Shown: positions 6,909 to 57,252 of the stretch, piece by piece | Layout of the letters: each line of letters opens with the position of its first letter | Position numbering within the stretch: position 1 is the first letter of the stretch | Assembly (NCBI GenBank): GCA_001793945.1 | Contig: MGIW01000003.1 | Coordinates: 129,630-193,629, forward strand | Length of the DNA stretch: 64,000 bases | From: Candidatus Wolfebacteria bacterium RIFOXYD12_FULL_48_21 | GTDB taxonomy: Bacteria > Patescibacteriota > Minisyncoccia > UBA6257 > UBA9933 | Direction: 5' to 3' | Program-made: the position numbers and the translations under genes | Notes under the pieces: model-generated | What the model saw: only the letters and a program-made list of their open reading frames with translations | Told to the model about the DNA's origin: nothing | Database searches by the model: none

Positions 6909-7556
6909 TTACCCACCAATACTATCTAAAACCTTCCTAATTTTCAAGTGCTTGCGGGATAGACATCTTACATCATCCGCATAGTACATATATTTGATTA
7001 ATATATCTGATTCTTTCTTCGCGTACCTTAATTGATACACCGAGCTGCTTGGTTTTTCCGCACAATGCCCTTTTATTCCGCACGACTGATTTATCTCCGA
7101 GCGTAGCCAATCAATATGACCGCGACTTGCCGAAACGAAGCTCGTATAATACATGAGGCTTGATTTCCACCGCGGATCCCAGTATGAATAAAAGCACCCA
7201 TCCCCATCAAAATGCCCCCTCAAGAAATCTGCAAAATATTTTTTAGGAATATTTATTTCTTTTAAAATTTTTGTCTTATTCGGCATCAAACCTATTTCTA
7301 TCAAAAAATCATAGAATATTCTGTCTCCCAATTGGATCCGAAAATAATCTTTCTTCTCAGTATATCCGCTCGTATGGCCCTCGGTTTTATTGGAAATACC
7401 AAGACATTCCCTAAAATTATTGATCATCTCCAAATCCTTTGATACAAGAACGATATGTCTCCCATCTTTCGAAAGGCTTCCGTCCGTCACAATCAACCCA
7501 ATCGCATACGCGAACTCAGGAGACCATTCCAGCCTTACTTTGCCGAGCGGTTTCAT
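6909..7556 (-). CDS. Free-standing double-motif LAGLIDADG homing endonuclease
   Basis: Motif 1 is FAYAIGLIVTDGSL and motif 2 is ADFLRGHFDGDGCF. It starts 5 bp upstream of tRNA-Leu(GAG). Confidence 0.7.
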   Translation of the reverse strand: MKPLGKVRLEWSPEFAYAIGLIVTDGSLSKDGRHIVLVSKDLEMINNFRECLGISNKTEGHTSGYTEKKDYFRIQLGDRIFYDFLIEIGLMPNKTKILKEINIPKKYFADFLRGHFDGDGCFYSYWDPRWKSSLMYYTSFVSASRGHIDWLRSEINQSCGIKGHCAEKPSSSVYQLRYAKKESDILIKYMYYADDVRCLSRKHLKIRKVLDSIGG

Positions 7557-22193: not shown

Positions 22194-22802
22194 TTATATT
22201 ACATGCTTTAAATTCCCAGTGCTTCCCACTTCGAATATCTCCACAAAGCCTTCAAGTTTCATTTTCATAATATCGGCGATCAATTCCTTTGGTATTTTTG
22301 TCTTCCCGATCCACACGCTTTTCTGTGCCATTTTAAAATCCAAATTCCCCAACACCATCCTTAGCCATGTACGCTTTTTCGTATATTCTTCCGGGATATC
22401 AAACATGACAATAATAACCTTATTCCCTTTTTCCTTTGGATAATACACATCGGGATATCCTTCTTTGCTTTTTAAAAATTCCAACTTCTGTTTTCCGCGT
22501 TCTGTTATTTTATATTTCTTTTTTTCCACTCCTATCTCTTCATTTATTAGCCCGTCTCTTTTTAATTTGTAGATCAGGCTATAATATCTGTTTGTCATCT
22601 TTCGCTCTTCTTCTTCGGTTCGCTTTCGCACATCGCGCCCGGTCCGTATTTTGTTTAAATTATAGTTAATGTCTATCGGCGATGCGCCGCGCCCACCTTC
22701 AACGACAGCCTCCAGCAGATCAAGCTGTGCGTCAATTCCCTCGCTTATCGCCTCCAATATTCTAAGTGATGATTTGTATCTCATGTTCTGCCTATCTTTC
22801 AT
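22194..22802 (-). CDS. PaaX-like regulator: N-terminal winged-helix HTH plus C-terminal Cas2-like (ferredoxin-fold) domain
   Basis: RYYSLIYKLKRDGLINEEIGVEKKKYKITERGKQ is wHTH-like. KVIIVMFDIPEEYTKKRTWLRMVLGNLDFKMAQKSVWIG fits the Cas2 / PaaX-middle-domain pattern (hhhhhYDh...RR.L...L..G.RVQ.SVF). Confidence 0.4.
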   Translation of the reverse strand: MKDRQNMRYKSSLRILEAISEGIDAQLDLLEAVVEGGRGASPIDINYNLNKIRTGRDVRKRTEEEERKMTNRYYSLIYKLKRDGLINEEIGVEKKKYKITERGKQKLEFLKSKEGYPDVYYPKEKGNKVIIVMFDIPEEYTKKRTWLRMVLGNLDFKMAQKSVWIGKTKIPKELIADIMKMKLEGFVEIFEVGSTGNLKHVI

Positions 22803-24892: not shown

Positions 24893-25810
24893 TTACTCGC
24901 TTTTATTTTTCCTCCTCCGCCCGTGAAATGTTTGGTGTATTTCCTTGAGTTCCTTGTTGGTTATGTGCGTGTATATCTGCGTGGTCGCGATGTTTGCGTG
25001 GCCGAGCATTTCCTGTACCGACCGTATGTCCGCTCCGTTGATCAACAGGTCAGTCGCGAAACTATGCCGCAACATGTGCGGATGCACATGCTTTGCTATG
25101 CCCGCCTTGCGCGAATAAAAATCAACCAGCCGTTGCACCGTCCGCGGAACGATTCTCCCGATTACCTTCGGACTCTTTGCCTTGGTGTAACTCACGAACA
25201 TCGCCTCCTCCGCGTCTCCCCTTTTCTCTAAATAATTTTTTATTTCCTTTACGGACCGTTCATCCAAAAACACCACCCGCAGTTTATTCCCCTTTCCGCG
25301 CACCGTCACTTCTCCCCGATCGAAATCCATGTAACGGTTCAAACTACACAACTCCGATATGCGCAACCCGGTCGAGAACAATACTTCGAGTATCGCACGA
25401 TCCCGCAATGCTTTTGTATCGCCTCCGCTTACGGCGCTCAAGAGCCGTTCAAGCTCATCATATTCCATAACCTCTATTTGTCGTGCCGGCACTTTGGGCA
25501 GCTCTATCTTGTCGGGCGATAATACCTTGTGGTCGTTTTTTATAAGGTACTTCAAAAAGTTTCGAAGCGCTATTATATAGTAGCTCTGTGTGGACTTACT
25601 ATACTGCTCCCCTCTTCCATTTGACGAGCGCGCCAAGTGCAACCGAAAATCCCGTACCCGCTCCACGGTTATGTCTGCTTCGCTCTTGATCCCCTCAACC
25701 TCGAAAAACTTTTTCAGATACCGCCCGTAGTTCTCCCCGGTCTTTTGCGATCGATTTTTTTCTATCTCGAGGTAGTCAAGATATTCTTTTAGCAGAATGT
25801 TTACATCCAT
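24893..25810 (-). CDS. Tyrosine site-specific recombinase, XerC/XerD family
   Basis: N-terminal core-binding SAM-like domain (LKEYLDYLEIEKNRSQKTGENY). C-terminal catalytic residues R..HxxR..Y are present (LRHSFATDLL, ...GHANIATTQIYTHI). Confidence 0.7.
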   Translation of the reverse strand: MDVNILLKEYLDYLEIEKNRSQKTGENYGRYLKKFFEVEGIKSEADITVERVRDFRLHLARSSNGRGEQYSKSTQSYYIIALRNFLKYLIKNDHKVLSPDKIELPKVPARQIEVMEYDELERLLSAVSGGDTKALRDRAILEVLFSTGLRISELCSLNRYMDFDRGEVTVRGKGNKLRVVFLDERSVKEIKNYLEKRGDAEEAMFVSYTKAKSPKVIGRIVPRTVQRLVDFYSRKAGIAKHVHPHMLRHSFATDLLINGADIRSVQEMLGHANIATTQIYTHITNKELKEIHQTFHGRRRKNKSE

Positions 25811-25864
25811 TACCCTCAGTATAGCAAATTGTTTTGCGACAGAATACCGAGCGTGATTTGTCAT

Positions 25865-26330
25865 CCCGAGTGCAACGCAGCGAAGCGGAGTGAAATCGAG
25901 GGATCTGATAGTAGCAAGCAGATTTCTCGACTCCTCCGTCGGCTGACGGATGCGCTCGGAATGACAGGGTGAGGTGGGATCCAGTTTTTTCTGCGGTAGC
26001 GGTGCCTTGGGTAATGGATACTGGATTCCCGCCTGCGCGGGAATGACAATGCAGGCGGAGAGGTGAGAGATTGGAGGGGGGGTGTCATCCCGAGTGCAAC
26101 GCAGCGGAGCGGAGTGGAATCGAGGGATCTGACTTTATACTACAGATTCCTCGGCACTTGAAGCGCAGAACCTTATGCACCTCGAGTACCCCCGGCACGC
26201 TACACACTCGTTTCACTCGTTAGCAACGCCGAGGGTCGGGCTCGAGATGACAATGCGGGGGAAAAATAACTGATGACAGGATGCGGGGGCAATACGAGGG
26301 TTTATTTTGCCGAATTTTTGTAGAACAGGT
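25865..26330. repeat. Hairpin repeat block (gtcatcccgagtgcaacgcagcgaagcggagtgaaatcgagggatctg... twice, ctggattcccgcctgcgcgggaatgacaatgc)
   Basis: Near-identical to 10290-10400 and 34840-34935. Confidence 0.65.
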
Positions 26331-26390
26331 GTGATCCGCCAGCCGGCGGATTGTTTCACATTCGGCAAAACCAAAAAATGTGAGATAAAA

Positions 26391-26675
26391 TGTTTCACGT
26401 GAAACAATTTACCTCGTTTTTCGCCCCAAGTGTGAAACAATTATGTTTCACACCGTGCACAGTGTTTCACGTGAAACACTTTATCTCGTTTTTCGCCCCT
26501 CCTCCTCTTTTTAGCGATTTGTGAAATCTGTCATTTTGAACAAATTGTTTCACGTGAAACAATTTGTCTCATATTTAGCCTATAGGTGTGAAACAACGAT
26601 GTTTCACACTGTGCACAGTGTTTCACGTGAAACACTTTATCTCGTTTTCCTTGAATAATTGTTTCACGTGAAACA
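26391..26675. promoter_or_regulatory. Cluster of five perfect consensus parS sites TGTTTCACGTGAAACA (26391-26406, 26463-26478, 26546-26561, 26619-26634, 26660-26675), plus two variant inverted repeats GTGTGAAACA-N4-TGTTTCACAC (26430-26453, 26586-26609)
   Basis: Each 16-mer is an exact palindrome. It equals the ParB-binding parS consensus tGTTtCAcGTGAAAca known from Bacillus and many other bacteria. Confidence 0.7.
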
Positions 26676-26699
26676 CTTTTGCTCACTTTTTGGCTTTTT

Positions 26700-27044
26700 G
26701 CCTATTTATTGGTTCGGCAGTTACCCCTGAGTTATCCACAACCAATTGGGGATAACTCGGCAATACCCCCCCCCGGGGGGGGGATGACTTATGACCGATA
26801 ACCAATAACTGATGACGGGATGCTTTATTCCCGCCTGCGCGGGAATGACACGCTCCCCGTATTGTCATCCCGTGCCACGACACGGGATCCAGTATTTTCT
26901 GCGGTAGTAACATATATAGATATTCAGACTCTGGATCCCGGCTTTCGCCGGGATGACAATACCGAGATGCGGGATGCTAACTGATGACCGATGACCGATA
27001 ACTAATAACGGGGGAGGGGCAGGATGGCGTAGCTCGGGTTCGGG
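26700..27044. repeat. Hairpin and low-complexity repeat block (ggattcccgcctgcgcgggaatgaca, ctggatcccggctttcgccgggatgacaat, TAACYRATAAC)
   Basis: Shared modules. Confidence 0.6.
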
Positions 27045-27482
27045 TTGTATACTGTTGGTATGAACGATCACCTACAAACCGGATCGCTTGGGGAGGATTT
27101 AGCCAGCCACATCCTTTCCGACTCTGGGCATACCGTACTTGAGCGCAATGCCCGCATGAAGTTCGGGGAGATCGATATTGTTTCCCGAAGCCCCAAAGGG
27201 GTCCTTATTTTTACGGAGGTTAAAACGCTTAAACGACCGTACGCGCTTTTCCCGGAAGATAACTTGACCCGGGCGAAGTTCATGAAACTTTCCCGCACTT
27301 GTTCCGCTTATGCCAACGCTCACCCCGAGCTTGTGAGCAACTCGCTCGGCTGGCGCATAGACCTTATCGCCATCATCGTCGATCCTACACTTCCCCTACC
27401 ATCCGAGTACCGCATGACCTCTTTCGGCAAAAATAATTTTGCCATATCGCACTACGAGAATATTTCTTCGCGTTTTAGTTAG
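27045..27482 (+). CDS. YraN-family (UPF0102) predicted endonuclease
   Basis: LGEDLASHILSDSGHTVLERNARMKFGEIDIVSRSPKGVLIFTEVKT matches the UPF0102 signature (GE.D.h pattern). Confidence 0.55.
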   Translation: MYTVGMNDHLQTGSLGEDLASHILSDSGHTVLERNARMKFGEIDIVSRSPKGVLIFTEVKTLKRPYALFPEDNLTRAKFMKLSRTCSAYANAHPELVSNSLGWRIDLIAIIVDPTLPLPSEYRMTSFGKNNFAISHYENISSRFS

Positions 27483-28459
27483 GGCATGGGGGGGGTAAAG
27501 TATGAGGTATGAGGTATGAGGTATACGGTATACGGTATGGGAGGGGGAGAGAGATTAGAAATTAGATGTTAGAGATGAGAGATTGGAGGGGGGGGAGGGG
27601 GGAGATGAGAGGCGAGAGGTGAGAGATAAGAGATGAGAGAAAGAGGGGAGACGCGATAATTCGGCAACATTATTGTTATCCACACTTGCGCTGTTTGCCG
27701 AATGTTTTGTATACTGTAGTCAGATATACATGGGTAGCACAATTCAATATCTAACACGGCTTTGATTCCCTCTTGCGTCGGAAAAAATAAGTCACACACA
27801 CTTTAGATTACGCAACTCTTTTGTCTTGGCGTAAGCCTGACTATTCTTATTCCGAGCCGTCATCTGACGGACGACGAATTAGGACCTCGCGGTAAAGCGA
27901 TGGGATTCCGGATCAAGTCCGGAATGACAGAGAGAGGAGGCTCGGGATGACATGCCGAGTTTCGTAATTTAAAAACTCACTTGAACCGCACATGACACTC
28001 TTGCGTTTGTCATCTCGCATATGTTCGCCTCTTTTGTCTTTTTCCAAAAAGACTTTTTGTCGTTTTAGTCTGCCGCCGACAAAGTCGCATATAATGGATT
28101 CCCGCCTTCGCGGGAATGACACAGAGAAGAATCGGAATGACAAGGGGCTAAGCTGTCATCCTGAACTTGTTTCAGGATCTCATGAGAAAGAAACGAGATT
28201 CCGAAACAAGTTCGGAATGACAGATAGTCGAGGACAGGCCCTCCTCCGCCGGTATGACAGAGAGAAAGATAGGAATGGCAGAGGGAAACAAATTTCATTT
28301 TTAAAAACAAACTTCACTAAAAAAATCTCCACCCCGCACATGCAATCAATTACCAAACTTAACCAAATGAAAAAGAACTGGATACCGGCCTCCGCCGGTA
28401 TGACACAGGGGGGGGGTCGCAAGAAGAAAAATGTAACGATGTCAGACATCGTTACATTG
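27483..28459. repeat. Long repeat-laden leader: purine-rich low-complexity tracts (27483-27660), hairpin modules (27900-28440) and a REP-like 29-bp palindrome (28430-28458) upstream of the giant surface protein gene
   Basis: gagataagagatgagag-type tracts plus ggattcccgccttcgcgggaatgaca and ctggataccggcctccgccggtatgaca modules. Confidence 0.55.
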
Positions 28460-31400
28460 ATGAAGCGCGGTTTCGTATTTTCGATGGTACTGATGATGGT
28501 ATTGTCGAATGTGTTTATGGCGAACGCCGCTACCTATACCTTTACCCAGACCAACTGGAGTGGGGGAGTTACCGCAAACAATGCCGTGCATGACACGGGC
28601 AACAATCAGGCACAGCAGAGCTGGCAGCAGTTTTCCACATCAACCGCATCGCTCGCGGTAGTAAACAGCGGAGCTGATGTGCAGATCGGCACTGCGGCAT
28701 CGTCGACCACACAGAGCGACGAGGGGAGTACCGTAACTGGATTCGCACTGGCGGGTGCTTCGAACTCGCAAACGAGCGTCAGTGGATCGGGAACCGGGGC
28801 AAACGTTCAACTTGCGACCGTCCCGGGGCAGTTCGGTTCCGGCGTCGACGGGGCAGTTACGATTTCAACATCGAAAAATATCAACACCGACACGATCGCC
28901 AGCGGCCGCACCTGCGCAGATGGAATTTCATATAACATTGTCGCGCTTACCGCTAATACTGCAACCCTTTCGGGTACCCCTCCGGCGGGATGTTTTGCGG
29001 CAGGCGACAAGGTGATGATTTTGAACGAGCAGGGCTACGGCACGAATGTGACCAATGTGGGTAATTATGAATTTTTGGATGTGCAATCCATTTCGGGCAA
29101 TGTTATTACCTTTACAGAAAGCAAGACTAAATATTATGGAAATGCGGAAGGCAATGATTTTGACTATACCGATTGGCAGCAAGTTTCGGCGGGAAACAGC
29201 CATACCTCGGCGGTAAAGACCGATGGGACGCTGTGGGCGTGGGGGAATAATAGCTACGGTCAGCTTGGACTTGGCAATACCACCAGTCAGACATCGCCAG
29301 TACAGGTGGGGACCGGCACGAACTGGCAGCAAGTTTCCGCGGGCACTTACCATACCATGGCGGTCACAACCGACGGAACGCTATGGGCGTGGGGATATAA
29401 TAGCAATGGACAGCTTGGTTTGGGAGACACGACCCAGCGCACTTCACCGACACAAGTTGGCACCGGCACCAACTGGGCGTCCGTGTCTGCGGGTGGGTTC
29501 CACGCCTTGGCGGTAAAGACCGATGGGACGCTGTGGGCGTGGGGGAATAATGGCTACGGGCGATTAGGAGATGGGACCACGACCCAGCGCACTTCACCGG
29601 TGCAGATCGGAACCGATACAACCTGGCAATCCGTTTCGACGGGAGATATTCACACCTTAGCGGTAAAGACCGATGGGACGCTGTGGGCGTGGGGGCATAA
29701 TGGCTTCGGCCAGCTTGGATTGGGAGACACGACCCAGCGCACTTCACCGGTGCAGATCGGAACCGATACAACCTGGCAATCCGTTTCGGCGGGTTCATCA
29801 CACACCATGGCGGTCAAGACCGGCGGCACCCTGTGGGCGTGGGGGTATAATGGTTTAGGGCAACTCGGCCTTGGCGATACCACCCAGCGGACATCGCCGG
29901 TGCAGGTGGGGACTGATACCGACTGGCAACAGGTATCGAGTGGAGGGGGTCATAACATGGCAGTTAAAGCGGGCGTGGTGCTGGGGACGGGAAGAAATGA
30001 TGCATTTCAGCTTGGGATAACCTATAACCTAAATAGACTGGTGTTTACGCAGTCTGCGCATCAAAAAATCGTATTGCAGCGCATACCCCAGTATACCAGC
30101 GTGGATATCACGGCGACCGGCACTATAACTGCCAGCCCATGGAATGGGGAAAGAGGTGGGGTGCTTGCGTTTTATGCGAGCGGAAATGTGAATGTGCAAC
30201 TTGGAGGAAGTATCAATGTCGTAGGAAAGGGGTATCGATCTGGCAATGGAAGCAACTATGATATATATGAGGGCCTATATGATTATGGGTATGCAGGAGA
30301 GTCATATAATGACACCTTTGGTGAAGGCTATGGGGGTGGCGATGGGTATTGCTCTGAAGTTGGGGGGTGTGCAGATGGGCCCGGTGGAGGAGTCCATACG
30401 GGTGTTTATGGAGGCGCTGCACTTTCCAAGATATTTATGGGTGCTGGCGGAGGAGAGGGTGGCGGATCGCTCGGAGCTGGAGGTGGCATAGTATATATTT
30501 CATCCGATAGCTTGAGTTTAAGTGGTTCGATTTCAGTTAATGGCGGAGGTGGAGATGCGAACGGAGGTGGAGCTGGCGGATCTGCGTATCTTATCGGCGG
30601 GTCGCTTACTGTTGGTACAAATGTTCTTACTTCTACGGGAGGTACTTCTACTTCACCAAATGCAAATGGTGGGATTGGAAGAATTAAGCTTAGCTCAAGC
30701 AGCATTTCAGGAACGACTAACCCAGCTGCGGAGACTTCCGCTCTTCCAACAATATACTATACCTCCGGGGCATATATCTCGGGCGCGATGGACCTTGGTA
30801 ATGTAGGTGGATATACGACGCTTAACTACAGCGCTTCGACAACCGCTCAGACTGTGGTGACTATTGATGTGCGCGCAGGCAACACGGCCACGCCGGATGG
30901 CACTTGGACCGCGTGGACGACCGGCGTTTCGAGTGGCGGAGATATTTCTGCGCTCGGGGCAAACCGTTATTTCCAATATCGGGCGAATTTAGCGACGAGC
31001 GATAATACGCAAACGCCTGCCTTGCACGATGTTTCGGTAGGCTACAGCATTTACGCGACAGACCAGACGCTCACTTCATCGAAGTACGACACAAGCAGCG
31101 CAGACAATGCGATGGGATCCATTGCATGGGATGAGGATGCTTCATTGCCGGCCGGGACGACCGTGACGGTTTCCTTGCGCACCGCGGCAACGGAAGTGGC
31201 TCTTACCGATGCAACATGGTACGCATTCACAAACGCATCCGACGATTGTGCGAAGGTAGATACGACTGTCACCTGTCCGTCAGCCGCGCTTGCCTCTGCT
31301 TCGGCATCGCTCGCCGACAATATTGATGACCAATGGTATCAATATAAGGTGTCGGTGACTTCGACCGGCGTAAACACGCCGACCATCCCGGAGGTGCGCG

Positions 31401-34400
31401 TGCAATATGTGGTAAATGCACCGCCAGAGCTCTCGGCGGTGACCGCAACGCAAATAGCGACATCGAGCGATGCCAACTGGGGCAAGATACAGATAAACTA
31501 TTCAGTGCGCGATATCGACAGTGAAACCGGATCTATTACCCCGGGATATGTAACGCCGTTGTTCGAGTACAATATCGGCGGTGGCTGGGTCGCCATCGAC
31601 GAGGCCAACCTTTCCGCAAATGCGCTCGACAACAAAATAGTTACACAGATAGGCTACACCGCATACAGTGCCACATGGGATGTGCAAACCGCCATTCCGG
31701 CGCAATATTTCGCATCCGCGCAGGTGCGCGTAACCGTCGACGACAACGAACCTGCAAACAATACCGCTCAGGCGACTGCGGCAGAATTCGTGCTCGACAC
31801 AACAGCACCAACCGTTTCGGGAACCATCAATGGCACTTCAAATGAATTGACCTACTCTGTTTCCGACGACCAAAATGTTTCCTATCGTCTTTCAAACAAT
31901 AGCGACGGTTCCTATGATAGCGTAAACGCCGCTTCCGGTTCGTGGGTCGCCGCCGGGGCACCGTCGGCAAGCGCGACCACCACATGGGAACTTGCAGGGG
32001 CACCGAGCAATCAGATCGCATATCTTGAGGGCCGCGATGTGTACGGCAACACGGCATCGACTACTATCATCGGCCCTTCAGCGCCTACCTACTTCGATCT
32101 GAAGGATGCTTCGAATGTGCTTATCGATAACTACCAGATATTCCTTTCATGGAAAGTATACACGGCGACCACATCTGCGTCATTCAACCGATATGAGTTG
32201 TACCGTTCGACCGACGGATATACCTACGGGTTGCGGAGCACCATCACCGATTCAGCGACCAATTACTATACGAACACCGGACTCGCCTCTTCGACCACCT
32301 ACTACTATAAGCTGTTGGCCGTCGACAGTGACGGGGATGTTTCGCCCTATTCCACCGTCCTTAGTCATCAACCAAGCGGACAGGGAGGAACCGACTCTAC
32401 TTCGCCGACCATCTCACTTGTAACGGCTACCGATACGCAATCGACCTATGCGAAGATAACATTCACCACAAATGAACTCGCCTTTGGTACGGTTGAATAT
32501 CATGCGGAAGGAGGCTCGCCGTATGCGCTATCCGAAACCAAGGATACCATTGCAACCGCCCACACGATTGTACTTACCGATCTGACGCCGAATACTACCT
32601 ATACATATCGTGTGCAGGCGACCGATATTGCCGGAAATGAAACAACTGACGAAAGCCTTGGCGCAGGATATACATTTACAACCCGCGGGGGCCCGATCAT
32701 TACCGATGTCACCGCCATTCTTGCCGATGACCGCAATGCGACCGTCGCGTGGAATACAAATGTTGATTCCAATTCGACCTTGGTTTATGCCGAAAATGCA
32801 GTAACACTGACTAACGGCGTAGGCACTACCGCCGTGCAAGACACTTCGTTTGCCGGAGGCGCAGGGCCGCTGTATCAGCACCGTATCACACTGACCAGTC
32901 TTACGCCGCGCACGACATACTATTACTATGTACAGTCGACCGACATTGATGGCAATACGGGTGTAGATAAGAACGGCCTGAATTATTACACCTTTACCAC
33001 ATCGTACGATACCAAGGCACCGACTGTTTCCAATATTACCACCCCGGTGATCACCGAAACCGCCGTGGTTGTACTGTGGAAAACGGATGAACTTTCTGAC
33101 TCACAGGTATCTTATGGCACCGAATCGGGTACCTATACCGAGACCACAACACTCGACACCAATATGTCGATCGTTCATGCGGTAACCTTAACCGGTCTTA
33201 CCGCCGGGACCGACTACTACTATGTAGTCAAATCGAACGACCCTGCAGGCAATGCAACGACTTCGCCTGAACAGAGCGTGACTTCCGCTGATGCGCAAGA
33301 AATATTGATCGTTACCATCGGAGGGGGAGGCGCCGGCAAGACCGATAATCCGCCACCAGATGTGAAGGACACGGCCCCGGCCGCCATCAGCAACATCAAG
33401 ATCGTGAATACGACCGCATTTGGCGCGACGCTTTCCTTTGAAACGAATGAGCCTACTGTGATCGGACTGCGTTATGGCCAAACCACCGCGTATGACCGCG
33501 CGGAGGCAAGTATCGATTGGAAACTGTCCCATGAGATCAAGCTCAGCGGCTTGCGCTTGGGGACCGATTATCACTTCCAGATCAAGGCGATCGACAAGGG
33601 CGGTAACGAAGCATTTTCCGATGACACAACCTTCACGACGAAGTTCATAGCGGAAGCAAGCGAAAGTGCGCGGACGATCGAAAATATCCAGCAGTATGAG
33701 CAGGAGATCGAAGATTCGCTCGCATCCATTTTGCCGAGCATCCTTCCTCCGTTCGTTGAAGATGCACGCGTAACCGACATAACAGAAAGCGCAGCTACCA
33801 TCAATTGGAGAACAAACATCAATTCGTATGCGACCGTTTCGTATGCGACCGAAGAAGAGTATTTGGCTGCAACCACCACCAGGACCGTATACACGGGAGA
33901 GGTTTCCGATATATCCGCAAAGACCCGCGAGCACTCGCTGATATTGATCGGGCTTAAACCGAACACGACCTATCACTTTAAGGCAAAGTCGTTCTCTGTG
34001 CCGCAAGTAGTTGGCGAAGGTCGCGATATGACCTTTATCACAAAGGCACCGGCCGTACAGGCGAGTGTGATCGATGTGAAGACCTCATCGTTCCGCGCCG
34101 CGTGGACAACCGATGTGGCCGCAAGCTCTATCGTGGAATACAAGAACTTGACCACGGGAGTCATCGAGCGCATCATCAACGAACCGTTGGTTACCTACCA
34201 CGATATTCTCGTTGATAATCTTCGCCCGGGAACCCGGTATGAAGTGAAGGTACTCGGGTACAGCGCATCGGGTAACCTGCTTTCCTCGGGAACAGCCATG
34301 AATGTGCTGACTTCTACCGATATTGCGGCACCGAAGATTGGCAACTTCAAGGTTGACGGCGCATTAGTACCGGGTCGCACAGACCGCATCCAGACCATCG

Positions 34401-34711
34401 TGTCATGGACGACCGATGAGCCGGGAACCGGCATCGTAGAATATCAGGAGGGTGCGGGCAGCGTTGCCGATGGGTTTGCCAATAAGGTAACCATCACCGA
34501 CAGCTATGTCACCAACCATGTGGTCATCCTTGCCAACCTGAAACCGGGAACCATTTACCAGTTCAAGATCACATCGGCAGACCAAGCAGGCAACACCGCC
34601 AGCTTCGGCCCGCGCACGATCATCACCCCGCAAAAGGGTGAGTCGATCTTCGATGTCATCTTTAAGAACTTTGAAGATACCTTTAAGTTCTTAAGAGGGG
34701 CGGGGCAGTAA
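28460..34711 (+). CDS. Giant secreted/surface protein (~2080 aa): signal peptide, ~7 RCC1 repeats, a Gly-rich region, then many FN3/Ig-like (purple-acid-phosphatase-N-like) repeats
   Basis: Repeated DGTLWAWGNNxYGQLGLGDTTQRTSPVQ units, a GGGxGG-rich stretch at ~30280-30700, and repeated ~90-aa beta-sandwich units with Y..Y..V.A.D..GN motifs. The start was chosen at MKRGFVFSMVLMMVLSNVFMANA rather than the repeat-derived upstream extension of ORF 27992..34711. Confidence 0.55.
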   Translation: MKRGFVFSMVLMMVLSNVFMANAATYTFTQTNWSGGVTANNAVHDTGNNQAQQSWQQFSTSTASLAVVNSGADVQIGTAASSTTQSDEGSTVTGFALAGASNSQTSVSGSGTGANVQLATVPGQFGSGVDGAVTISTSKNINTDTIASGRTCADGISYNIVALTANTATLSGTPPAGCFAAGDKVMILNEQGYGTNVTNVGNYEFLDVQSISGNVITFTESKTKYYGNAEGNDFDYTDWQQVSAGNSHTSAVKTDGTLWAWGNNSYGQLGLGNTTSQTSPVQVGTGTNWQQVSAGTYHTMAVTTDGTLWAWGYNSNGQLGLGDTTQRTSPTQVGTGTNWASVSAGGFHALAVKTDGTLWAWGNNGYGRLGDGTTTQRTSPVQIGTDTTWQSVSTGDIHTLAVKTDGTLWAWGHNGFGQLGLGDTTQRTSPVQIGTDTTWQSVSAGSSHTMAVKTGGTLWAWGYNGLGQLGLGDTTQRTSPVQVGTDTDWQQVSSGGGHNMAVKAGVVLGTGRNDAFQLGITYNLNRLVFTQSAHQKIVLQRIPQYTSVDITATGTITASPWNGERGGVLAFYASGNVNVQLGGSINVVGKGYRSGNGSNYDIYEGLYDYGYAGESYNDTFGEGYGGGDGYCSEVGGCADGPGGGVHTGVYGGAALSKIFMGAGGGEGGGSLGAGGGIVYISSDSLSLSGSISVNGGGGDANGGGAGGSAYLIGGSLTVGTNVLTSTGGTSTSPNANGGIGRIKLSSSSISGTTNPAAETSALPTIYYTSGAYISGAMDLGNVGGYTTLNYSASTTAQTVVTIDVRAGNTATPDGTWTAWTTGVSSGGDISALGANRYFQYRANLATSDNTQTPALHDVSVGYSIYATDQTLTSSKYDTSSADNAMGSIAWDEDASLPAGTTVTVSLRTAATEVALTDATWYAFTNASDDCAKVDTTVTCPSAALASASASLADNIDDQWYQYKVSVTSTGVNTPTIPEVRVQYVVNAPPELSAVTATQIATSSDANWGKIQINYSVRDIDSETGSITPGYVTPLFEYNIGGGWVAIDEANLSANALDNKIVTQIGYTAYSATWDVQTAIPAQYFASAQVRVTVDDNEPANNTAQATAAEFVLDTTAPTVSGTINGTSNELTYSVSDDQNVSYRLSNNSDGSYDSVNAASGSWVAAGAPSASATTTWELAGAPSNQIAYLEGRDVYGNTASTTIIGPSAPTYFDLKDASNVLIDNYQIFLSWKVYTATTSASFNRYELYRSTDGYTYGLRSTITDSATNYYTNTGLASSTTYYYKLLAVDSDGDVSPYSTVLSHQPSGQGGTDSTSPTISLVTATDTQSTYAKITFTTNELAFGTVEYHAEGGSPYALSETKDTIATAHTIVLTDLTPNTTYTYRVQATDIAGNETTDESLGAGYTFTTRGGPIITDVTAILADDRNATVAWNTNVDSNSTLVYAENAVTLTNGVGTTAVQDTSFAGGAGPLYQHRITLTSLTPRTTYYYYVQSTDIDGNTGVDKNGLNYYTFTTSYDTKAPTVSNITTPVITETAVVVLWKTDELSDSQVSYGTESGTYTETTTLDTNMSIVHAVTLTGLTAGTDYYYVVKSNDPAGNATTSPEQSVTSADAQEILIVTIGGGGAGKTDNPPPDVKDTAPAAISNIKIVNTTAFGATLSFETNEPTVIGLRYGQTTAYDRAEASIDWKLSHEIKLSGLRLGTDYHFQIKAIDKGGNEAFSDDTTFTTKFIAEASESARTIENIQQYEQEIEDSLASILPSILPPFVEDARVTDITESAATINWRTNINSYATVSYATEEEYLAATTTRTVYTGEVSDISAKTREHSLILIGLKPNTTYHFKAKSFSVPQVVGEGRDMTFITKAPAVQASVIDVKTSSFRAAWTTDVAASSIVEYKNLTTGVIERIINEPLVTYHDILVDNLRPGTRYEVKVLGYSASGNLLSSGTAMNVLTSTDIAAPKIGNFKVDGALVPGRTDRIQTIVSWTTDEPGTGIVEYQEGAGSVADGFANKVTITDSYVTNHVVILANLKPGTIYQFKITSADQAGNTASFGPRTIITPQKGESIFDVIFKNFEDTFKFLRGAGQ

Positions 34712-35752: not shown

Positions 35753-36034
35753 CTATAAGTCATCATACAAATCCTTCCATTCAGGATTTTCTTTTTCTAT
35801 TAATTTCAACTTCCAATTCCTGTGCCACTCTTTTAGGCATTTCTCTCTTGCAATCGCGCTACGCACATCAGGCGTCGCCTCAAAATACACCAATCTGTCT
35901 ATGCTATATATTTTTGTAAATCCTTCTATCAGCTTTTCTTTATGTTCGTATACTCTTCTTTTTAGATCATTTGTTACTCCGATATATAATGTTCCATTTC
36001 GTTTATTGGCGAGAATATATATGTAATACTGCAT
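35753..36034 (-). CDS. GIY-YIG nuclease-superfamily small protein (UPF0213-like)
   Basis: YYIYILANKRNGTLYIGVTNDLKRRVYEHK is a canonical GIY-YIG motif. The start was chosen at MQYYIYIL, after the repeat-derived N-terminal extension. Confidence 0.55.
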   Translation of the reverse strand: MQYYIYILANKRNGTLYIGVTNDLKRRVYEHKEKLIEGFTKIYSIDRLVYFEATPDVRSAIAREKCLKEWHRNWKLKLIEKENPEWKDLYDDL

Positions 36035-36174
36035 TTCTTTATTATACTGGATACCGGCCTGCGCCGGTATGACAGTACGGGGAGGTGTGACACCCCGGCG
36101 CGTTCGGAATGACAATGCGGGGCCTCGCACAAACAAAAACAACCCCGGAGGGTTGTTTTTGTTTGAAGGATATT

Positions 36175-36792
36175 TTATCGCTTCTTCCATTGCGGGGCGC
36201 GTCGTGCCTTTTTGAGGCCCGGCTTCTTTCGTTCCACTGCCCGCGGATCGCGGGTCAACAGATCGAGTCTGCGCAAACGCTTCTGGAATACCGGATTGAA
36301 CTTGATCAATGCCCGGGCAATTCCGAGACGCGCCGCTTGCGACTGTGCCATCGGTCCGCCTCCCTTTACTTTAATGATCGCTCCAAGCTTGTCGGAGATT
36401 TTCATCTTTTCGAGCGCGCTCTCGACATCCTTTTCATATCGCTCGACGCCGAAGTATTCTTTCAATGTCTTGTTGTTGATCTTGATGCCCTCCATTTTAG
36501 TGAAGAGGCGAACACGCGCAACTGCCGTCTTGCGGCGACCGACGGCTTCGAAGTACTTGTCCTTCTTTCCGCTGGTTCGCTTCGGTTTTTCCCCGACAGC
36601 CACCTCTTCTATTACCAGAGCTTCGTCTGCCTCCTCCTCTTTGGTTAAGGCTTCGTCGATTCCCTTAACGACCTCGTCTTCAAAAGCTGCCTTCTCCTTC
36701 GCCACAACTTCGGCGGATGAGTCAACAACTTTCTTATCCTTCGACTTGCTCAGGACTTCGTCCTTTTTTGTTTTTTTCGTTGTTTCCGTCAT
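36175..36792 (-). CDS. rpsI: 30S ribosomal protein S9 (with a charged N-terminal extension)
   Basis: The C-terminus GGGPMAQSQAARLGIARALIKFNPVFQKRLRRLDLLTRDPRAVERKKPGLKKARRAPQWKKR matches S9. Confidence 0.8.
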   Translation of the reverse strand: MTETTKKTKKDEVLSKSKDKKVVDSSAEVVAKEKAAFEDEVVKGIDEALTKEEEADEALVIEEVAVGEKPKRTSGKKDKYFEAVGRRKTAVARVRLFTKMEGIKINNKTLKEYFGVERYEKDVESALEKMKISDKLGAIIKVKGGGPMAQSQAARLGIARALIKFNPVFQKRLRRLDLLTRDPRAVERKKPGLKKARRAPQWKKR

Positions 36793-43325: not shown

Positions 43326-45131
43326 TTATTTCGTCAATTCACTCTCTATTTCCTTAAGGAACACGCTTGTTTTCTTTATGCCCAGGTCGCCCTCGCCTCG
43401 CTTGCGAATGGCCACGCTTTTGGCGGCGACTTCCTTATCGCCGATAACCAATAGGTAGGGGATGCGTTTCATTTCCGCTTCGCGGATCTTTTTGCCAACG
43501 CTCCCGTCATAATCAGCCACTTCTACGCGCGCGCCCAATGCTTCAAGCTGGGCTGCGACTTCTTTTGCGTATGGAAGATGAGCTTCGCCCACATTGATGA
43601 CCTTGCACTGCACGGGGGATAGCCATGTCGGCAGGTCGCCCGCGGTCGTTTCGAGTAAGAATGAAAAGAACCGTTCGAATGACCCGAGGATGGCCCGGTG
43701 TATGACGACCACCGGCTGCTCCGTTCCATCTTTGTCTATGTAATTCAAGTTGAACTTTGCCGCGGAGTAGTAGTCTACCTGAATGGTCGCGATAGTATCT
43801 TCCTTTCCGTAAATGTTCTTGATCTGAATGTCTATCTTCGGCCCGTAGAACGATGCCTCGCCAAGCCCTTCGACGAATTCAAGTTTGAGCTTTTTAAGCA
43901 CGCTTCTCAGCACGCTTGCGCCGTCTTCCCACATTTTTTTGTTTTTTACATCGCCGTATTTCTCCTTGTTCTTGAAGTCGGGGAGGGAAAGGCGGAACCA
44001 GTAGCCACCGATGTTAAAATCATCGTAGACTTCCTTGAACAATTCGAGAATGCCGATTATTTCCGCTTCCAATTGTTCCTGCGTGGCGTAGATGTGCGAA
44101 TCGTTTTGGGTAAACCCGCGCGTGCGGATCATGCCGCTTAATGTTCCCGATCGTTCAAAGCGGAACACATTGCCGAACTCGGCCATGCGAAACGGCAGGT
44201 CGCGGTAGCTCATCAATTTATGGTTGTAAATCGAGTGATGATGTGGGCAGTTCATAGGGCGCAAATAGTAGCGCTCTCCCTCTATCTCGATCGGTGCGTA
44301 CATGTCTTCCTTATAATGGGCGAGGTGTCCGGAGGTTTTATACAACCCCTCTTTGGCCAAAATAGGCGTCAAAACATGCTTGTATCCAGCCTTTTGCTCC
44401 TTGTCGTACATGTAGGTTTCAATCAAGTGTCGCACCAAATATCCGTTCGGAAGCCACAAGGGGAGCCCTTTGCCGATCTTTTCATCTACCATAAACATGT
44501 CGAGTTTTTCGGCAAGCACGCGATGGTCGCGGCGCTCCGCCTCTGCCAACATATGCAAATGCGCTTCGAGATCTTCTTTTGTTTCAAAGGCAAGGCCGTA
44601 GATACGCGTAAGCATCGGGTTCTTTTCCGAACCTTTCCAATATGCCCCGGCGATCTTTTGCAGTTTAAATGCTTCCGGATTTATTTCTTTGGTCGATGCC
44701 ACATGCGGGCCCGCGCATAAATCGGCAAAAATCACTTCTTTACCGCTTTTTGTCGCGTACATCGTCGGCTCTTTGCCGTCTTTTTTTAGATCCTTGATCA
44801 GCTCCAATTTATATGGCTGATTTTTGAAAAACTTTTTTGCTTCGTCGTAGGTGGTCTTTTCTTTTTTAAACACCAACTCTTTTTTCATCAATCCGCGCAT
44901 GCGGTTTTCAAGCGCCTGCAAGTCTTTATCGGTCACTTTTGCGTTTCCAAAATCGAAATCATAATAAAATCCGTTTTCTATCACCGGCCCGATGCCGAGC
45001 TTGGTTCCCGAAAACTGCTTCAAAACCGCCTCTGCCAATAAGTGGGAAAGGGAGTGCCTGACCTTTTCCAAATTGTTGCCCATAGCTTTTTTACTAACAG
45101 CTTTTTTGATCGTTTTTTTCGTCGTTTTCAT
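43326..45131 (-). CDS. thrS: Threonyl-tRNA synthetase
   Basis: Class II aaRS motifs and a ThrRS-like pattern (…RDHRVLAEKLDMF…, …PMNCPHHHSIY…, the C-terminal anticodon-binding domain). Confidence 0.85.
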   Translation of the reverse strand: MKTTKKTIKKAVSKKAMGNNLEKVRHSLSHLLAEAVLKQFSGTKLGIGPVIENGFYYDFDFGNAKVTDKDLQALENRMRGLMKKELVFKKEKTTYDEAKKFFKNQPYKLELIKDLKKDGKEPTMYATKSGKEVIFADLCAGPHVASTKEINPEAFKLQKIAGAYWKGSEKNPMLTRIYGLAFETKEDLEAHLHMLAEAERRDHRVLAEKLDMFMVDEKIGKGLPLWLPNGYLVRHLIETYMYDKEQKAGYKHVLTPILAKEGLYKTSGHLAHYKEDMYAPIEIEGERYYLRPMNCPHHHSIYNHKLMSYRDLPFRMAEFGNVFRFERSGTLSGMIRTRGFTQNDSHIYATQEQLEAEIIGILELFKEVYDDFNIGGYWFRLSLPDFKNKEKYGDVKNKKMWEDGASVLRSVLKKLKLEFVEGLGEASFYGPKIDIQIKNIYGKEDTIATIQVDYYSAAKFNLNYIDKDGTEQPVVVIHRAILGSFERFFSFLLETTAGDLPTWLSPVQCKVINVGEAHLPYAKEVAAQLEALGARVEVADYDGSVGKKIREAEMKRIPYLLVIGDKEVAAKSVAIRKRGEGDLGIKKTSVFLKEIESELTK

Positions 45132-45185
45132 AGTGATGATATTACCCTTATTAAACGCCAAACCAACCAAAATTGCAAAACGCCA

Positions 45186-45214
45186 AATGTAACGATGTCT
45201 GACATCGTTACATT
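45186..45214. repeat. 29-bp REP-like palindrome AATGTAACGATGTCTGACATCGTTACATT immediately upstream of the RAYT gene
   Basis: Inverted repeat read directly from the sequence. Confidence 0.7.
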
Positions 45215-45233
45215 TGCGTGCTATTATATAAAC

Positions 45234-45914
45234 ATGTCTGAACTATACCATGCTCTTAACCGAGGAGTTGATAAGAAGAAAATATTTCTGGACAAACAGG
45301 ACCACTTGCGATTTATTCATGACCTTTATGAATTCAATGACGAAGCTCCGGCGAGCAATAATTGCCACGGCTTTCGCCGGATGCCGGTTAAATGTAACGA
45401 TGTCGGACGTCGTTATATTAAACGATCCCGATTGGTTACCATCCATGCATTCTGTCTCATGCCAAACCATTATCATCTGCTTTTAAGCCCGCGCGTCGAG
45501 AATGGTATCCCTTTATTTATGAAGAAGTTGAATGGCGGATATGCAAAGTATTTCAACGAACGATACGATCGAAAAGGGACATTATTTGAGGGAAGGTATA
45601 AGTCGGTGCCGGTAACGGCGCAATCACACTTTATTCACTTGCCCTATTATATTCACTTGAACCCGTTGGATATGTTTGATCACGGATGGCGGGATCGGGT
45701 AGTTCATAGCCATGCCGATACCATAAAATATTTGGAAAATTATCGATGGTCGAGCCATTTGGACTATTTGGGGAAAAAGAATTTCCCCTCGGTTACACAA
45801 CGAGAGTTCCTGCTCGAATTTTTTGGAGGACAGGAGGGATACGCGCAAGCGTTAGCCCAATGGGTCAAAGATATTAGTATCAACGAGATACATGACATCA
45901 TCTTAGAAAAGTGA
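45234..45914 (+). CDS. IS200/IS605-family Y1 (HuH) transposase of the REP-associated tyrosine transposase (RAYT) type, interrupted in-frame by a copy of its own palindrome (45391-45419)
   Basis: HuH motif CLMPNHYHLLL and Tyr motif GTLFEGRYKS. The palindrome is translated as …VKCNDVGRRYI… without a stop. Confidence 0.5.
   Translation: MSELYHALNRGVDKKKIFLDKQDHLRFIHDLYEFNDEAPASNNCHGFRRMPVKCNDVGRRYIKRSRLVTIHAFCLMPNHYHLLLSPRVENGIPLFMKKLNGGYAKYFNERYDRKGTLFEGRYKSVPVTAQSHFIHLPYYIHLNPLDMFDHGWRDRVVHSHADTIKYLENYRWSSHLDYLGKKNFPSVTQREFLLEFFGGQEGYAQALAQWVKDISINEIHDIILEK
45391..45419. repeat. Imperfect copy of the 29-bp palindrome inside the RAYT coding sequence
   Basis: aatgtaacgatgtcggacgtcgttatatt. Confidence 0.6.
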
Positions 45915-54202: not shown

Positions 54203-55321
54203 TCATGTATTATTTATCGGCATGATGATATAGAAATAATCTTGCACATTCATCGGCCGTATGATCGCGGGTTTATTATCCCCATTTAGTCCGATCGTTA
54301 TATTTTCCGTTTCGATATTTTTTATACCATCAAATAGAAACTTCCAGTTAAATACGATTTCCATTGAATCACCTTTTATTTTTGCCGGTATCAGATACTG
54401 ATTTTCTCCCAATATTGGGTTTGCCGAGAATAATTCTATGTTTTTTACCCCTTCTTTTATGATAACCCTGATCTCATTCATCTTATCAGAGAAAGATCCT
54501 GTCAATTTCAACGCATTTACTAATTGATCCCTATTTACCGTAATTTCTATCGCTATTTCTTTTGGGATAATTGGCTGATAATCGGGAAAATCTCCATTTA
54601 TAACCCGGGAAACCAGTTCAAATTTATCAGTTCGGAATAATATTTGATTTAAATCGAAGTAAATAGATATTTTCTCTTCGTCTTTCTCCGACATAATCCT
54701 TACCAGTTCCTGTATGGTCTTTAGCGGAACGATCATCTTCAGCTTCTGTTCTATATTTGCCTTATAACTATTTTCATCGATTGTTCTTTCTGCAAGCCTA
54801 AAACTATCCGTAGCGGCAAACTTTATGATGTTTACCTGATAATCAAACAACACGCCACCCAGCTCCGGACGAATAGCGGAACCTTGACTCGCCATAACAA
54901 TAGACAGAAAGGTATCTTTCAATAATCCGCTTTCCATCTGTAAATATTCCCTTTCGTTCTCTATTTTCGGAATAATAGGGAACTCTTCTTTTTTTGTTCC
55001 CTGTATTTTCGCCTGATAATTCTCTGTTTTTATGACCAAATTGTTATTTTTAGTCTCCAAACTAACCCGCTCGCTCTCAAGATTATTAATGATCGACGAA
55101 AGAATACTCAATGGAACCGTTATACTCCCATCTTTGATGACTTTTGCCGGAATAACACTCGATATCGCCATTTCAAGATTCGTTACCGAAAACTTTATTT
55201 TATTTTCATGTGTTTCTATAAGGCAGTTTTTCAGAATAGGGAGTGATGCATTTTCCGATCCGATTTTTCCGAGTGCAGTGATACCTTCTTTAAGGTTTGT
55301 TTTCAGTACGATGAGTTCCAT
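54203..55321 (-). CDS. dnaN: DNA polymerase III beta sliding clamp
   Basis: 372 aa with a three-domain beta-clamp pattern, directly downstream of dnaA. Confidence 0.85.
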   Translation of the reverse strand: MELIVLKTNLKEGITALGKIGSENASLPILKNCLIETHENKIKFSVTNLEMAISSVIPAKVIKDGSITVPLSILSSIINNLESERVSLETKNNNLVIKTENYQAKIQGTKKEEFPIIPKIENEREYLQMESGLLKDTFLSIVMASQGSAIRPELGGVLFDYQVNIIKFAATDSFRLAERTIDENSYKANIEQKLKMIVPLKTIQELVRIMSEKDEEKISIYFDLNQILFRTDKFELVSRVINGDFPDYQPIIPKEIAIEITVNRDQLVNALKLTGSFSDKMNEIRVIIKEGVKNIELFSANPILGENQYLIPAKIKGDSMEIVFNWKFLFDGIKNIETENITIGLNGDNKPAIIRPMNVQDYFYIIMPINNT

Positions 55322-55399
55322 AAAATAAAATTTGTTTGTAATGCATTCTTACTACTTCTGTTACTATAATATATTAAAAATAGTAGAAGCAGTAGTAGG

Positions 55400-55475
55400 G
55401 GTGTGGACAGTGTGGATAAGTGGATAATGGATAACAATAGAAACGGATTTATTTAATTCTGCAGTGTGGATAAAA
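55400..55475. promoter_or_regulatory. DnaA-box cluster in the dnaA-dnaN intergenic region (tgtggacag, tgtggataa, tggataatg, tgtggataa)
   Basis: Multiple matches to TGTGGATAA (complement TTATCCACA) within 75 bp. Confidence 0.6.
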
Positions 55476-55487
55476 AGCGGGAAAAAA

Positions 55488-56855: not shown

Positions 56856-57252
56856 AATAAATAACGGTTAACTAATAACTCATGACCCATAACGGAATGC
56901 AAAAATCCAAAATTTCAAAAGAAATATACGGATAAGGGTCGTTTCTTTAACTAATAAAATCATTATACAGATTTATAAAATTATAGCGAATAGTGTGGAA
57001 AAGTAAAAAAATGGGGAATAGGTGTGGATAACTCGTATACCCCGCATAAACACTGGGTAAAATCACTCTACCCATTGACACAATATGCGGGAAAAGTTTG
57101 TGATTAGACCATAAAAATAGTTGTCCAAGTAGTTATCCACATACCTACAAAATAGATAATTTTAAAATTTTAAATTTGAAGAAGAATGCGTCTGGGCTTC
57201 TGTGCTGGGGAGGGCTTGCATTTTCTAACCAATTCCGATATAGTAGACCATT
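56856..57252. promoter_or_regulatory. Candidate oriC: DnaA boxes (56994 tgtggaaaa, 57023 tgtggataa, 57133 ttatccaca) and an AT-rich unwinding region (57150-57185) between divergent dnaA and rpmH
   Basis: Canonical rnpA-rpmH / dnaA-dnaN arrangement with perfect DnaA boxes on both strands. Confidence 0.6.

Follow-up and report, generated by a model that had tools for sequence, protein, structure and literature searches.

A dense array of consensus parS sites upstream of yraN, probably the chromosomal centromere of a Candidatus Wolfebacteria genome

The sequence analysed, a stretch of 64,000 bp from contig MGIW01000003.1 (the window, in the following), belongs to Candidatus Wolfebacteria bacterium RIFOXYD12_FULL_48_21, a member of the Candidate Phyla Radiation (CPR; Parcubacteria) from groundwater of the Rifle aquifer. 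It contains a cluster of palindromes identical to parS, the site bound by the partition protein ParB, located in the divergent intergenic region between two genes which both read away from it: xer, encoding a tyrosine recombinase of the XerC/XerD/XerA type (24893-25864, minus strand), and yraN, encoding a PD-(D/E)xK nuclease-like protein of family UPF0102 (27060-27482, plus strand, with the start assigned by the gene caller). A preliminary description, made from the letters of the sequence, had reported here five exact parS copies and two GTGTGAAACA-N4-TGTTTCACAC inverted repeats within about 300 bp, beside a Xer recombinase and a YraN nuclease; coordinates, shuffle statistics and gene assignments all agree with it.

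Five exact copies of TGTTTCACGTGAAACA start at positions 26391, 26463, 26546, 26619 and 26660, against a chance expectation of 0.01 estimated by shuffling, and all of them match the consensus TGTTNCACGTGAAACA at 16 positions out of 16. The five sites, parS1 (26391-26406), parS2 (26463-26478), parS3 (26546-26561), parS4 (26619-26634) and parS5 (26660-26675), are packed within 285 bp, at distances of 72, 83, 73 and 41 bp. Two everted half-site pairs are interleaved with them: GTGTGAAACA-ATTA-TGTTTCACAC at 26430-26453, which is kept in the related loci L004, L005, L007 and L259, and GTGTGAAACA-ACGA-TGTTTCACAC at 26586-26609. A lone half-site, TGTTTCAC, is found at 26352-26359 on the plus strand, and the orthologous position of L004 holds a full everted pair. 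The whole cluster, consisting of five full sites, two everted pairs and one lone half-site, spans positions 26352-26675; the window has 16 copies of the half-site 8-mer, and 15 of them fall inside the cluster. On the plus strand every parS is followed by a conserved flank, N-TTT-NN-CTC, and by a T-rich tail; CTTTATCTCGTTTTT follows parS2, and parS1 is flanked on both sides, by GAGATAAAA and ATTTACCTC. The extended form of the site is referred to as the GAGATAAA-extended site.

Tandem Repeats Finder detected no tandem repeats in the array, which contains a partial, old duplication of 156 bp (63 nt at 95% identity). A centromere made of direct repeats of a fixed unit, of the sopC type, is ruled out by this null result together with the observed spacings. 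A scan for promoters and terminators gave nothing above shuffled sequences, one 'terminator' match being parS3 itself, and no RNA family was found at the array in a search of the whole window against Rfam, which detected only three tRNAs.

Allowing up to two mismatches, no additional parS match was found elsewhere in the 64-kb window, nor outside the array across the approximately 78 kb around oriC which could be searched (from about -8 kb to about +70 kb). The 16-mer, for which membership of a dispersed repeat family had initially been considered, is not a dispersed repeat. The surrounding intergenic DNA is repeat-rich, as had been noticed at first inspection, and its short repeats do recur in other intergenic regions; the parS sites lie outside them, and the short dispersed repeat families R1-R5 of the neighboring intergenic DNA contain no parS. 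An assignment of the array itself to dispersed repeats resembling repetitive extragenic palindromes (REP) or miniature inverted-repeat transposable elements (MITE) was rejected, the parS 16-mer and the half-sites being confined to the array locus. A REP/MITE-like look is shown by GC-rich short repeats, such as TGTCATCCCGAGTGCAACGCAGCG... and TTCCCGCCTGCGCGGGAATGACA, scattered through the intergenic regions of the window, with copies near the array (25859-25929, 26083-26153, 26016-26048, 26818-26850, 25976-25999 and 26884-26907) and at other intergenic sites, for example at 10296, 12317, 24533, 34839 and 51684.

Conservation of the array was evaluated on 80 related loci, obtained by scanning metagenome contigs with the Xer protein of the window. 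All the loci whose Xer is 88-97% identical (L004-L010) hold five to six perfect parS sites at the same place, together with everted pairs, and the same is true of L259, which was picked up separately by way of YraN. When the window is aligned with three diverged relatives, all 80 positions of the five parS sites are invariant, and the spacers diverge by substitutions and indels. At Xer identities of 72-74%, the place of the array is taken, in one locus (L013), by one parS site with direct and everted half-site pairs and, in two others (L011 and L012), by half-sites and a decayed site only. The order xer-array-yraN is syntenic across the species-level relatives. The alignment of syntenic regions, a check which the preliminary description had put forward, indicates that the parS sites are under constraint and the surrounding DNA is not.

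The replication origin lies at some distance from the array. The oriC region (55322-57243) has the classic rpmH-dnaA-dnaN arrangement, with DnaA-box clusters in the spacers between dnaN (54203-55321) and dnaA (55488-56855, minus strand) and between dnaA and rpmH; four perfect DnaA boxes start at 55411, 55465, 57023 and 57133, and AT-rich tracts also flank dnaA. Up to 26 kb the bulk GC skew is strongly negative; from 26 to 56 kb it is weak, and beyond 57 kb it is positive. It changes sign locally at about 26 kb, and the pattern holds when overlapping contigs are used to lengthen the sequence by 8 kb at its left end and 6.5 kb at its right end. Since this left some doubt about the origin, the skew at third codon positions (GC3 skew) was computed gene by gene. 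On the plus strand it is mostly negative, without a sustained switch, up to and including dnaN, a stretch which comprises the plus-strand genes for YraN, for a 2239-aa protein with RCC1 repeats and for a penicillin-binding protein (PBP), and it is positive from dnaA rightwards. The genes, the DnaA boxes and the GC3-skew switch at dnaA place the origin at about 55.4-57.2 kb; the array is thus located 29 kb away, in the left replichore, at the distance given in the preliminary description. In three long Wolfebacteria assemblies (contigs of 160, 617 and 789 kb) the yraN-array-xer block is found a few kb, or a few genes, from the contig start (L005, L006, at about 7.5 kb in contig coordinates, and locus tag UT41_C0001G0004); if the start of these curated genomes was set by rotation to an origin defined by skew, the array there would be much nearer to the origin than 29 kb.

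DnaA recognition sequences are also present beside the array. An inverted DnaA-box pair, forming the palindrome GAGTTATCCACAACCAATTGGGGATAACTC (26729-26758), consists of TTATCCACA at 26732 and TGGGGATAA at 26747; the form found in Wolfebacteria is TTATCCACA-N6-TGTGGATAA, from which the window copy differs by one mismatch. In all Wolfebacteria relatives the inverted pair lies at 30-60 bp from the array, and it is the only perfect DnaA-box pair in the 8-13 kb of each relative's locus. In L160, a Parcubacteria contig, three perfect DnaA boxes are interleaved with parS sites. An isolated perfect box lies between yraN and the RCC1 gene (27676-27684, plus strand), bracketed by TTCGGCAA and TTGCCGAA, and L004 has a DnaA box at the matching place. 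A homopolymer palindrome of the C9G8 type, cccccccccgggggggg, is found just right of the DnaA-box palindrome (26768-26785), and a direct repeat, AATAACTGATGAC(A/G)GGATGC, brackets the array together with the DnaA-box palindrome (26265 and 26804).

The conserved inverted pair, perfect or near-perfect, the three boxes of L160 and the local change of sign of the bulk skew at about 26 kb could be taken to indicate that replication starts here as well, or that the locus titrates DnaA or has a regulatory role, the parS sites then being accessories. Such a role is most improbable. The GC3 skew of the plus strand shows no sustained switch until dnaA and, of the features of an oriC (several DnaA boxes, an unwinding element and a skew switch), only the two boxes of the inverted pair are found at the array, with no obvious AT-rich unwinding element, when a classic four-box origin is already present at rpmH-dnaA-dnaN. 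The array is not itself a replication origin.

The other genes of the window are typical of a housekeeping chromosomal region and include comEC, gyrA, tsaE, dnaE, dnaN, dnaA, rpmH, rnpA, relA/spoT, ligA and those for ribosomal proteins S1, S7, S9, S12 and L13, EF-G, ThrRS, a class A PBP and three pilins of the type IV secretion system (T4SS) type. The preliminary description had left room for a relic of an integrated replicon, given the adjacent tyrosine recombinase, and an integrated plasmid or prophage delivered by that enzyme would be in keeping with the recombinase gene adjoining the array, with a tRNA-Leu 3 kb beyond it and with the tight arrays of the same consensus carried by viral or plasmid-like contigs (43 stretches, with up to six sites). 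The recombinase, however, is full-length, aligning from end to end with the XerC/XerD/XerA models, and belongs to a family found in 2108 CPR genomes (PMC6744442); the neighbors are gyrA, dnaE, EF-G, ribosomal protein genes and the like; no rep or phage genes were seen by Pfam among the proteins of the window (about 56 open reading frames, ORFs), and the GC content is unremarkable. Neither the gene context of a mobile element nor the adjacent partition genes of a plasmid or prophage cassette were found, the latter being missing in the window, in its extensions and in the loci of the relatives. In addition, the xer-array-yraN order is kept across species-level relatives, and the link to yraN reaches deeper lineages. 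The relic reading is therefore contradicted by the type of recombinase, the housekeeping neighbors and the conserved synteny; it is already largely refuted, and only a minimal probability can be granted to it.

Several further features of the window were noted. The stretch downstream of yraN (27500-27650) contains short tandem repeats (gaggtat / acggtat) and a long GAGA-type tract rich in purines. The protein of 2239 aa encoded at 27992-34711 combines RCC1 repeats with purple-acid-phosphatase-N-like and fibronectin type III domains, and giant genes related to it flank xer-array-yraN in L005, L006, L009 and L259. Genes of the selfish-element type occur amid the housekeeping ones, namely a LAGLIDADG-like ORF by L19 and a tRNA-Leu (6909-7556), a GIY-YIG ORF between tsaE and rpsI (35753-36190) and an IS200-like Y1 transposase ORF (45042-45914). 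A 202-aa protein (22194-22802) with a PaaX-middle/Cas2-like domain and a weak PadR match fits the 'PaaX-like' family fam00183, reported in 1147 CPR genomes against 11 other bacteria (PMC6744442). Near oriC, three consecutive plus-strand ORFs of 214-216 aa (60833-61483, 61628-62272 and 62417-63067), apparently paralogues, have no Pfam match.

In order to place the array among other genomes, two perfect parS sites 30-60 bp apart were searched for in one genome per species. This census gives at least 120 stretches and no frequency, and the species of the window is absent among the matches listed. The matches span many phyla, Streptomyces, Lachnospiraceae, Chloroflexota, Acidobacteriota and Bacteroidia among them, and tight parS pairs are common across bacteria. 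About half of the 120 loci listed carry parAB within 8 kb, so the tight pairs may be taken as bona fide ParB sites. Larger clusters are rarer: the maximum number of perfect sites within 400 bp is two at 92 of the loci listed, three at 17, four at six, five at one, six at one and seven at three. Three of the 120 belong to CPR, namely L159, a complete Paceibacterota chromosome with seven sites, the Parcubacteria contig L160 and L202, from Saccharibacteria; together with L262 and L266, these are the dense canonical arrays found in other CPR. Dense arrays of the chromosomal consensus are therefore uncommon, not unique, and the element is of a known kind.

The spacing of the sites in Wolfebacteria is regular with respect to the DNA helix. 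In four distinct arrays, adjacent sites are separated by 41, 51/52, 61, 72/73 or 83 bp, corresponding to 4, 5, 6, 7 and 8 turns of about 10.4 bp, and the spacings of L259 (52, 73, 41 and 52 bp) fall into the same classes. The resultant length R is 0.96 at a period of 10.4-10.6 bp, and all pairwise distances across a Wolfebacteria array remain in phase (0.91-0.98); random spacings of five classes reach this phasing in about 0.2% of trials. The arrays of other taxa, L159 and L262 included, have no such phasing. The arrays being homologous, the phasing is suggestive rather than proven.

The gene linked to the array deserves separate consideration. We know of no organism in which the function of YraN (UPF0102) has been established. 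In L159 the seven-site array lies directly upstream of a yraN homologue, whose product is 33% identical, and nine further yraN contexts (L259-L267) were sampled by YraN similarity alone. The region upstream of yraN has the Wolfebacteria architecture in L259. In L262 it holds nine TGTTT-N6-AAACA palindromes at a spacing of 48-49 bp, the last of which ends 8 bp before the yraN ATG; five of the nine are canonical sites, the others being TGTTTGCCGGCAAACA and hybrids, TGTTTCACGGCAAACA included, in register with the canonical ones. Seven such sites, with half-sites, reach 8 bp before the ATG in L266. Five variant palindromes (cores AGCGAT, GTCGCT, GTCGAC twice and AGCGCT) and no canonical site are present in L260, and three half-sites with one variant palindrome in L264. 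L263 has a short run of degenerate half-sites, with one canonical GTGAAACA, beyond an inserted LAGLIDADG gene, and only degenerate half-sites or TTGCCG-type repeats are found in L261, L265 and L267. Overall, counting without L266 and L267, TGTTT-N6-AAACA occurs 53 times in 19 kb of DNA within 1 kb upstream of yraN, at 11 of 19 loci, against once in the other 212 kb of those loci and once in 78 other CPR loci totalling 713 kb. On the side away from yraN, the gene next to the array varies by lineage (xer, an ogt-like gene, a dksA-like/comM-like pair, ddl), and yraN is the only gene which stays linked to such arrays. Among the 120 census loci listed, yraN is near parS only in L159, a CPR locus, and the linkage appears to be specific to this CPR group.

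Other repeated elements share the same region. A second class of palindrome, TGTTTGYCGRCAAACA, recurs upstream of yraN in several lineages, in some cases in register or hybrid with parS (L013, 2095-2340; L069, about 915; L260, 4736-4992; L262, 2589 and 3260; L264, 2967). The window keeps only the core of this class, as TTCGGCAA/TTGCCGAA (26307-26368 and 27660-27702), in inverted pairs which bracket the lone half-site and the isolated DnaA box; the window has 18 copies of this 8-mer where 4.1 would be expected, and five of the 18 fall within 26.3-27.7 kb. Runs of TTGCCG(A/G) repeats are found at the equivalent place in L261, L267 and L011. In four lineages a free-standing LAGLIDADG homing-endonuclease gene (PF00961) lies directly upstream of yraN (L011, 2817-3270; L069, about 340-807; L263, 2451-2954; L267, 2519-2959) and separates it from the half-site cluster or from repeat remnants, the canonical parS array being decayed or absent there.

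The concentration of TGTTT-N6-AAACA arrays upstream of yraN, the stop of the last site or half-site 8 bp before its ATG in L262 and L266, and the change of the gene on the other side when yraN remains would all be accounted for if the array were primarily a cis-regulatory operator for yraN, and perhaps for xer, bound by ParB or by another protein, with the centromere role secondary or absent. As the primary function this is improbable: five to nine copies of a 16-bp site far exceed the needs of an operator, the motif is the pan-bacterial ParB site, the array of the window stops 385 bp before yraN with dispersed repeats in between, and its origin-proximal position is the one expected for a centromere. 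ParB complexes are known to affect neighboring genes, and for this reason an effect on yraN is compatible with a centromere as well.

The array is probably the chromosomal centromere, or main ParB loading site, of the Candidatus Wolfebacteria chromosome. A consensus palindrome, an origin-proximal location and purifying selection relative to the flanking non-coding DNA, by which parS centromeres are recognised, are all found at this locus. A chromosomal ParB nucleation or partition site was among the readings of the preliminary description, and it is supported by the exact consensus, the invariance of the sites in relatives, their position as the only parS in about 78 kb and the proximity to the origin.

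Several results weigh against this interpretation. No parAB was visible in the window at first inspection, and none was detected there by Pfam on the ORFs, by tblastn with Spo0J and Soj queries, or by hidden Markov models (HMMs) built on 66 ParB and 67 ParA sequences from other loci; the tblastn and HMM searches also found none in the loci of the relatives and in the extensions, the precomputed Pfam annotation of the overlapping contigs shows neither gene in the added 8 kb (left) and 6.5 kb (right), and in no relative does ParA or ParB lie within about 6 kb of the array. A ParB profile, searched against a database of 5.8 billion proteins, listed only ParBs resembling those of gut Lachnospiraceae, a result which says nothing either way about Wolfebacteria. 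Furthermore, a pure centromere model would not lead one to expect so tight a linkage to yraN across lineages, the everted and direct half-site pairs and the variant palindromes (TGTTTGYCGRCAAACA) of related lineages are not classic ParB targets, and the statistic for the phasing was obtained from arrays that are homologous and offer few spacing classes.

The queries themselves appear adequate, because, among the 120 census loci listed, the same Spo0J sequence had a match in 60 and the same Soj sequence in 66, so that parAB was recovered at about half of them. According to published counts (PMC6744442, Supplementary Data 1), ParB (PF02195/K03497) is present in 1717 CPR genomes and equally distributed, as are, for scale, GyrB (1985 genomes) and EF-Ts (1983), whereas the ParA-type K03496 (617 genomes) and SMC (1016) are depleted. 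ParB is thus near-core in CPR and ParA is often absent. On the basis of these CPR-wide counts, ParB is probably encoded elsewhere in the genome under study, and ParA may be absent from it.

The palindromes might instead be bound by a protein other than ParB. The candidates are YraN, possibly as a dimer on palindromes or cruciforms, and some other CPR DNA-binding protein, and the identity with parS would then reflect shared site ancestry rather than present ParB binding. Consistent with this are the linkage of yraN to arrays across lineages, the variant and hybrid palindromes in register with canonical sites in L262 (TGTTTGCCGGCAAACA, TGTTTCACGGCAAACA), the presence of variants only in L260 and the lack of ParB near any CPR array. 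A 16/16 consensus in five to seven copies, across several CPR classes including Saccharibacteria, would nevertheless be hard to keep without ParB, which is near-universal in CPR by the counts given above; YraN, near parS only in L159 among the census loci listed, is not a general parS partner, and UPF0102 proteins are not known to bind DNA sequence-specifically. A binder of this sort is considered very unlikely.

Under the centromere interpretation, by analogy with studied systems, dimers of a canonical ParB, presumably encoded elsewhere, would bind each of the five 16-bp palindromes, close into clamps on binding cytidine triphosphate (CTP) and slide onto the flanking DNA. The sliding ParB would build a partition complex over the origin-proximal region, organising and segregating the origins; SMC loading would probably be the means, and ParA may not be needed. 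Five to six sites in 285 bp on one face of the helix would provide a high local loading rate. The everted pairs and the DnaA-box palindrome would act as conserved accessory elements, which may add ParB contacts and, through DnaA, a link between replication and segregation. Since the divergent promoter region of xer and yraN is occupied by the array, the partition complex probably also modulates the expression of yraN.

The phasing, the half-site pairs, the DnaA boxes and the linkage to yraN suggest more than bare binding sites, and the region may be a structured nucleoprotein locus coupling replication, segregation and the expression or action of YraN. A broader generalisation, which we regard as speculative and rather unlikely, is that Parcubacteria-type CPR carry a composite, yraN-linked centromere, made of an array of palindromes, either parS or TGTTT-N6-AAACA forms derived from it, with half-sites and often DnaA boxes, phased helically in Wolfebacteria and kept directly upstream of yraN as all its other neighbors change, with YraN as a centromere-associated protein and largely free of ParA. 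If it were true, YraN might work at the partition complex as a structure-specific nuclease, with palindromes, cruciforms or junctions as its substrates, or its gene might be dosed by ParB. The inner bases of the palindrome would drift by lineage, from the canonical CACGTG core to a GYCGRC core, and such a drift would imply a co-evolving ParB specificity or a second binder.

CPR/Patescibacteria, whose cells and genomes are tiny, account for a large part of bacterial diversity, and chromosome segregation is essentially undescribed in them: a full-text search found no publications on ParB or parS in CPR, Patescibacteria, Saccharibacteria or Wolfebacteria. The array offers a concrete, testable centromere for this group, and a natural experiment in centromere design, with many perfect sites on one helical face, half-sites and DnaA boxes in organisms where ParA is often missing. 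The repeated association of such arrays with yraN provides a first genomic clue to what UPF0102, a widespread and uncharacterised nuclease family, may do. Should the array be nothing more than a dense parS cluster, it would count as an ordinary element met in a new organism. The core finding is ordinary biology in an unstudied lineage; what merits further attention is the composite architecture, phased and linked to yraN.

Among known systems, the closest are the chromosomal ParABS clusters of B. subtilis, C. crescentus, P. aeruginosa and C. glutamicum, which have the identical 16-bp consensus, several copies, an origin-proximal location and a housekeeping chromosome. The parS sites of model organisms are spread over kilobases, whereas those of the Wolfebacteria array are five in 285 bp, helically phased and interleaved with everted half-site pairs; moreover, the array has no parAB nearby and is linked to yraN instead. 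In P. aeruginosa, a cluster of four parS sites is the nearest to oriC (PMC4368675), and the loading of ParB-CTP at 16-bp parS sites has been described (PMC8494293).

The sopC centromere of the F plasmid is made of a 43-bp unit directly repeated 12 times; SopB, a protein of the ParB family, binds the 16-bp inverted repeat present in every unit, and the dense site array builds one partition complex (PMC3177203). The Wolfebacteria array is similarly made of dense 16-bp palindromic sites of the ParB-family kind, spaced by a few helical turns. It differs in that its units are not tandem, with spacings from 41 to 83 bp and unrelated spacers, in that the motif is the chromosomal consensus and not that of sopC, and in its chromosomal setting, with no adjacent genes of the sopA/sopB type.

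DnaA has been reported to bind the parS region of Caulobacter (Mera, Kalogeraki and Shapiro 2014, as cited in PMC6667618). At the level of sequence, the Wolfebacteria array resembles the Caulobacter centromere in having DnaA recognition sequences directly beside parS. By analogy, DnaA boxes in this position suggest a coupling of replication initiation to segregation.

ParB-parS systems without ParA also exist, as in Streptococcus pneumoniae. The Wolfebacteria locus is comparable to them, as no parA is found near the array and, in CPR genomes, ParB is common (1717) and the ParA type depleted (617), so that a role in SMC loading and chromosome organisation, without ParA-driven transport, is plausible by analogy. 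From the pneumococcal parS sites it is distinguished by the architecture of the array and by its linkage to yraN.

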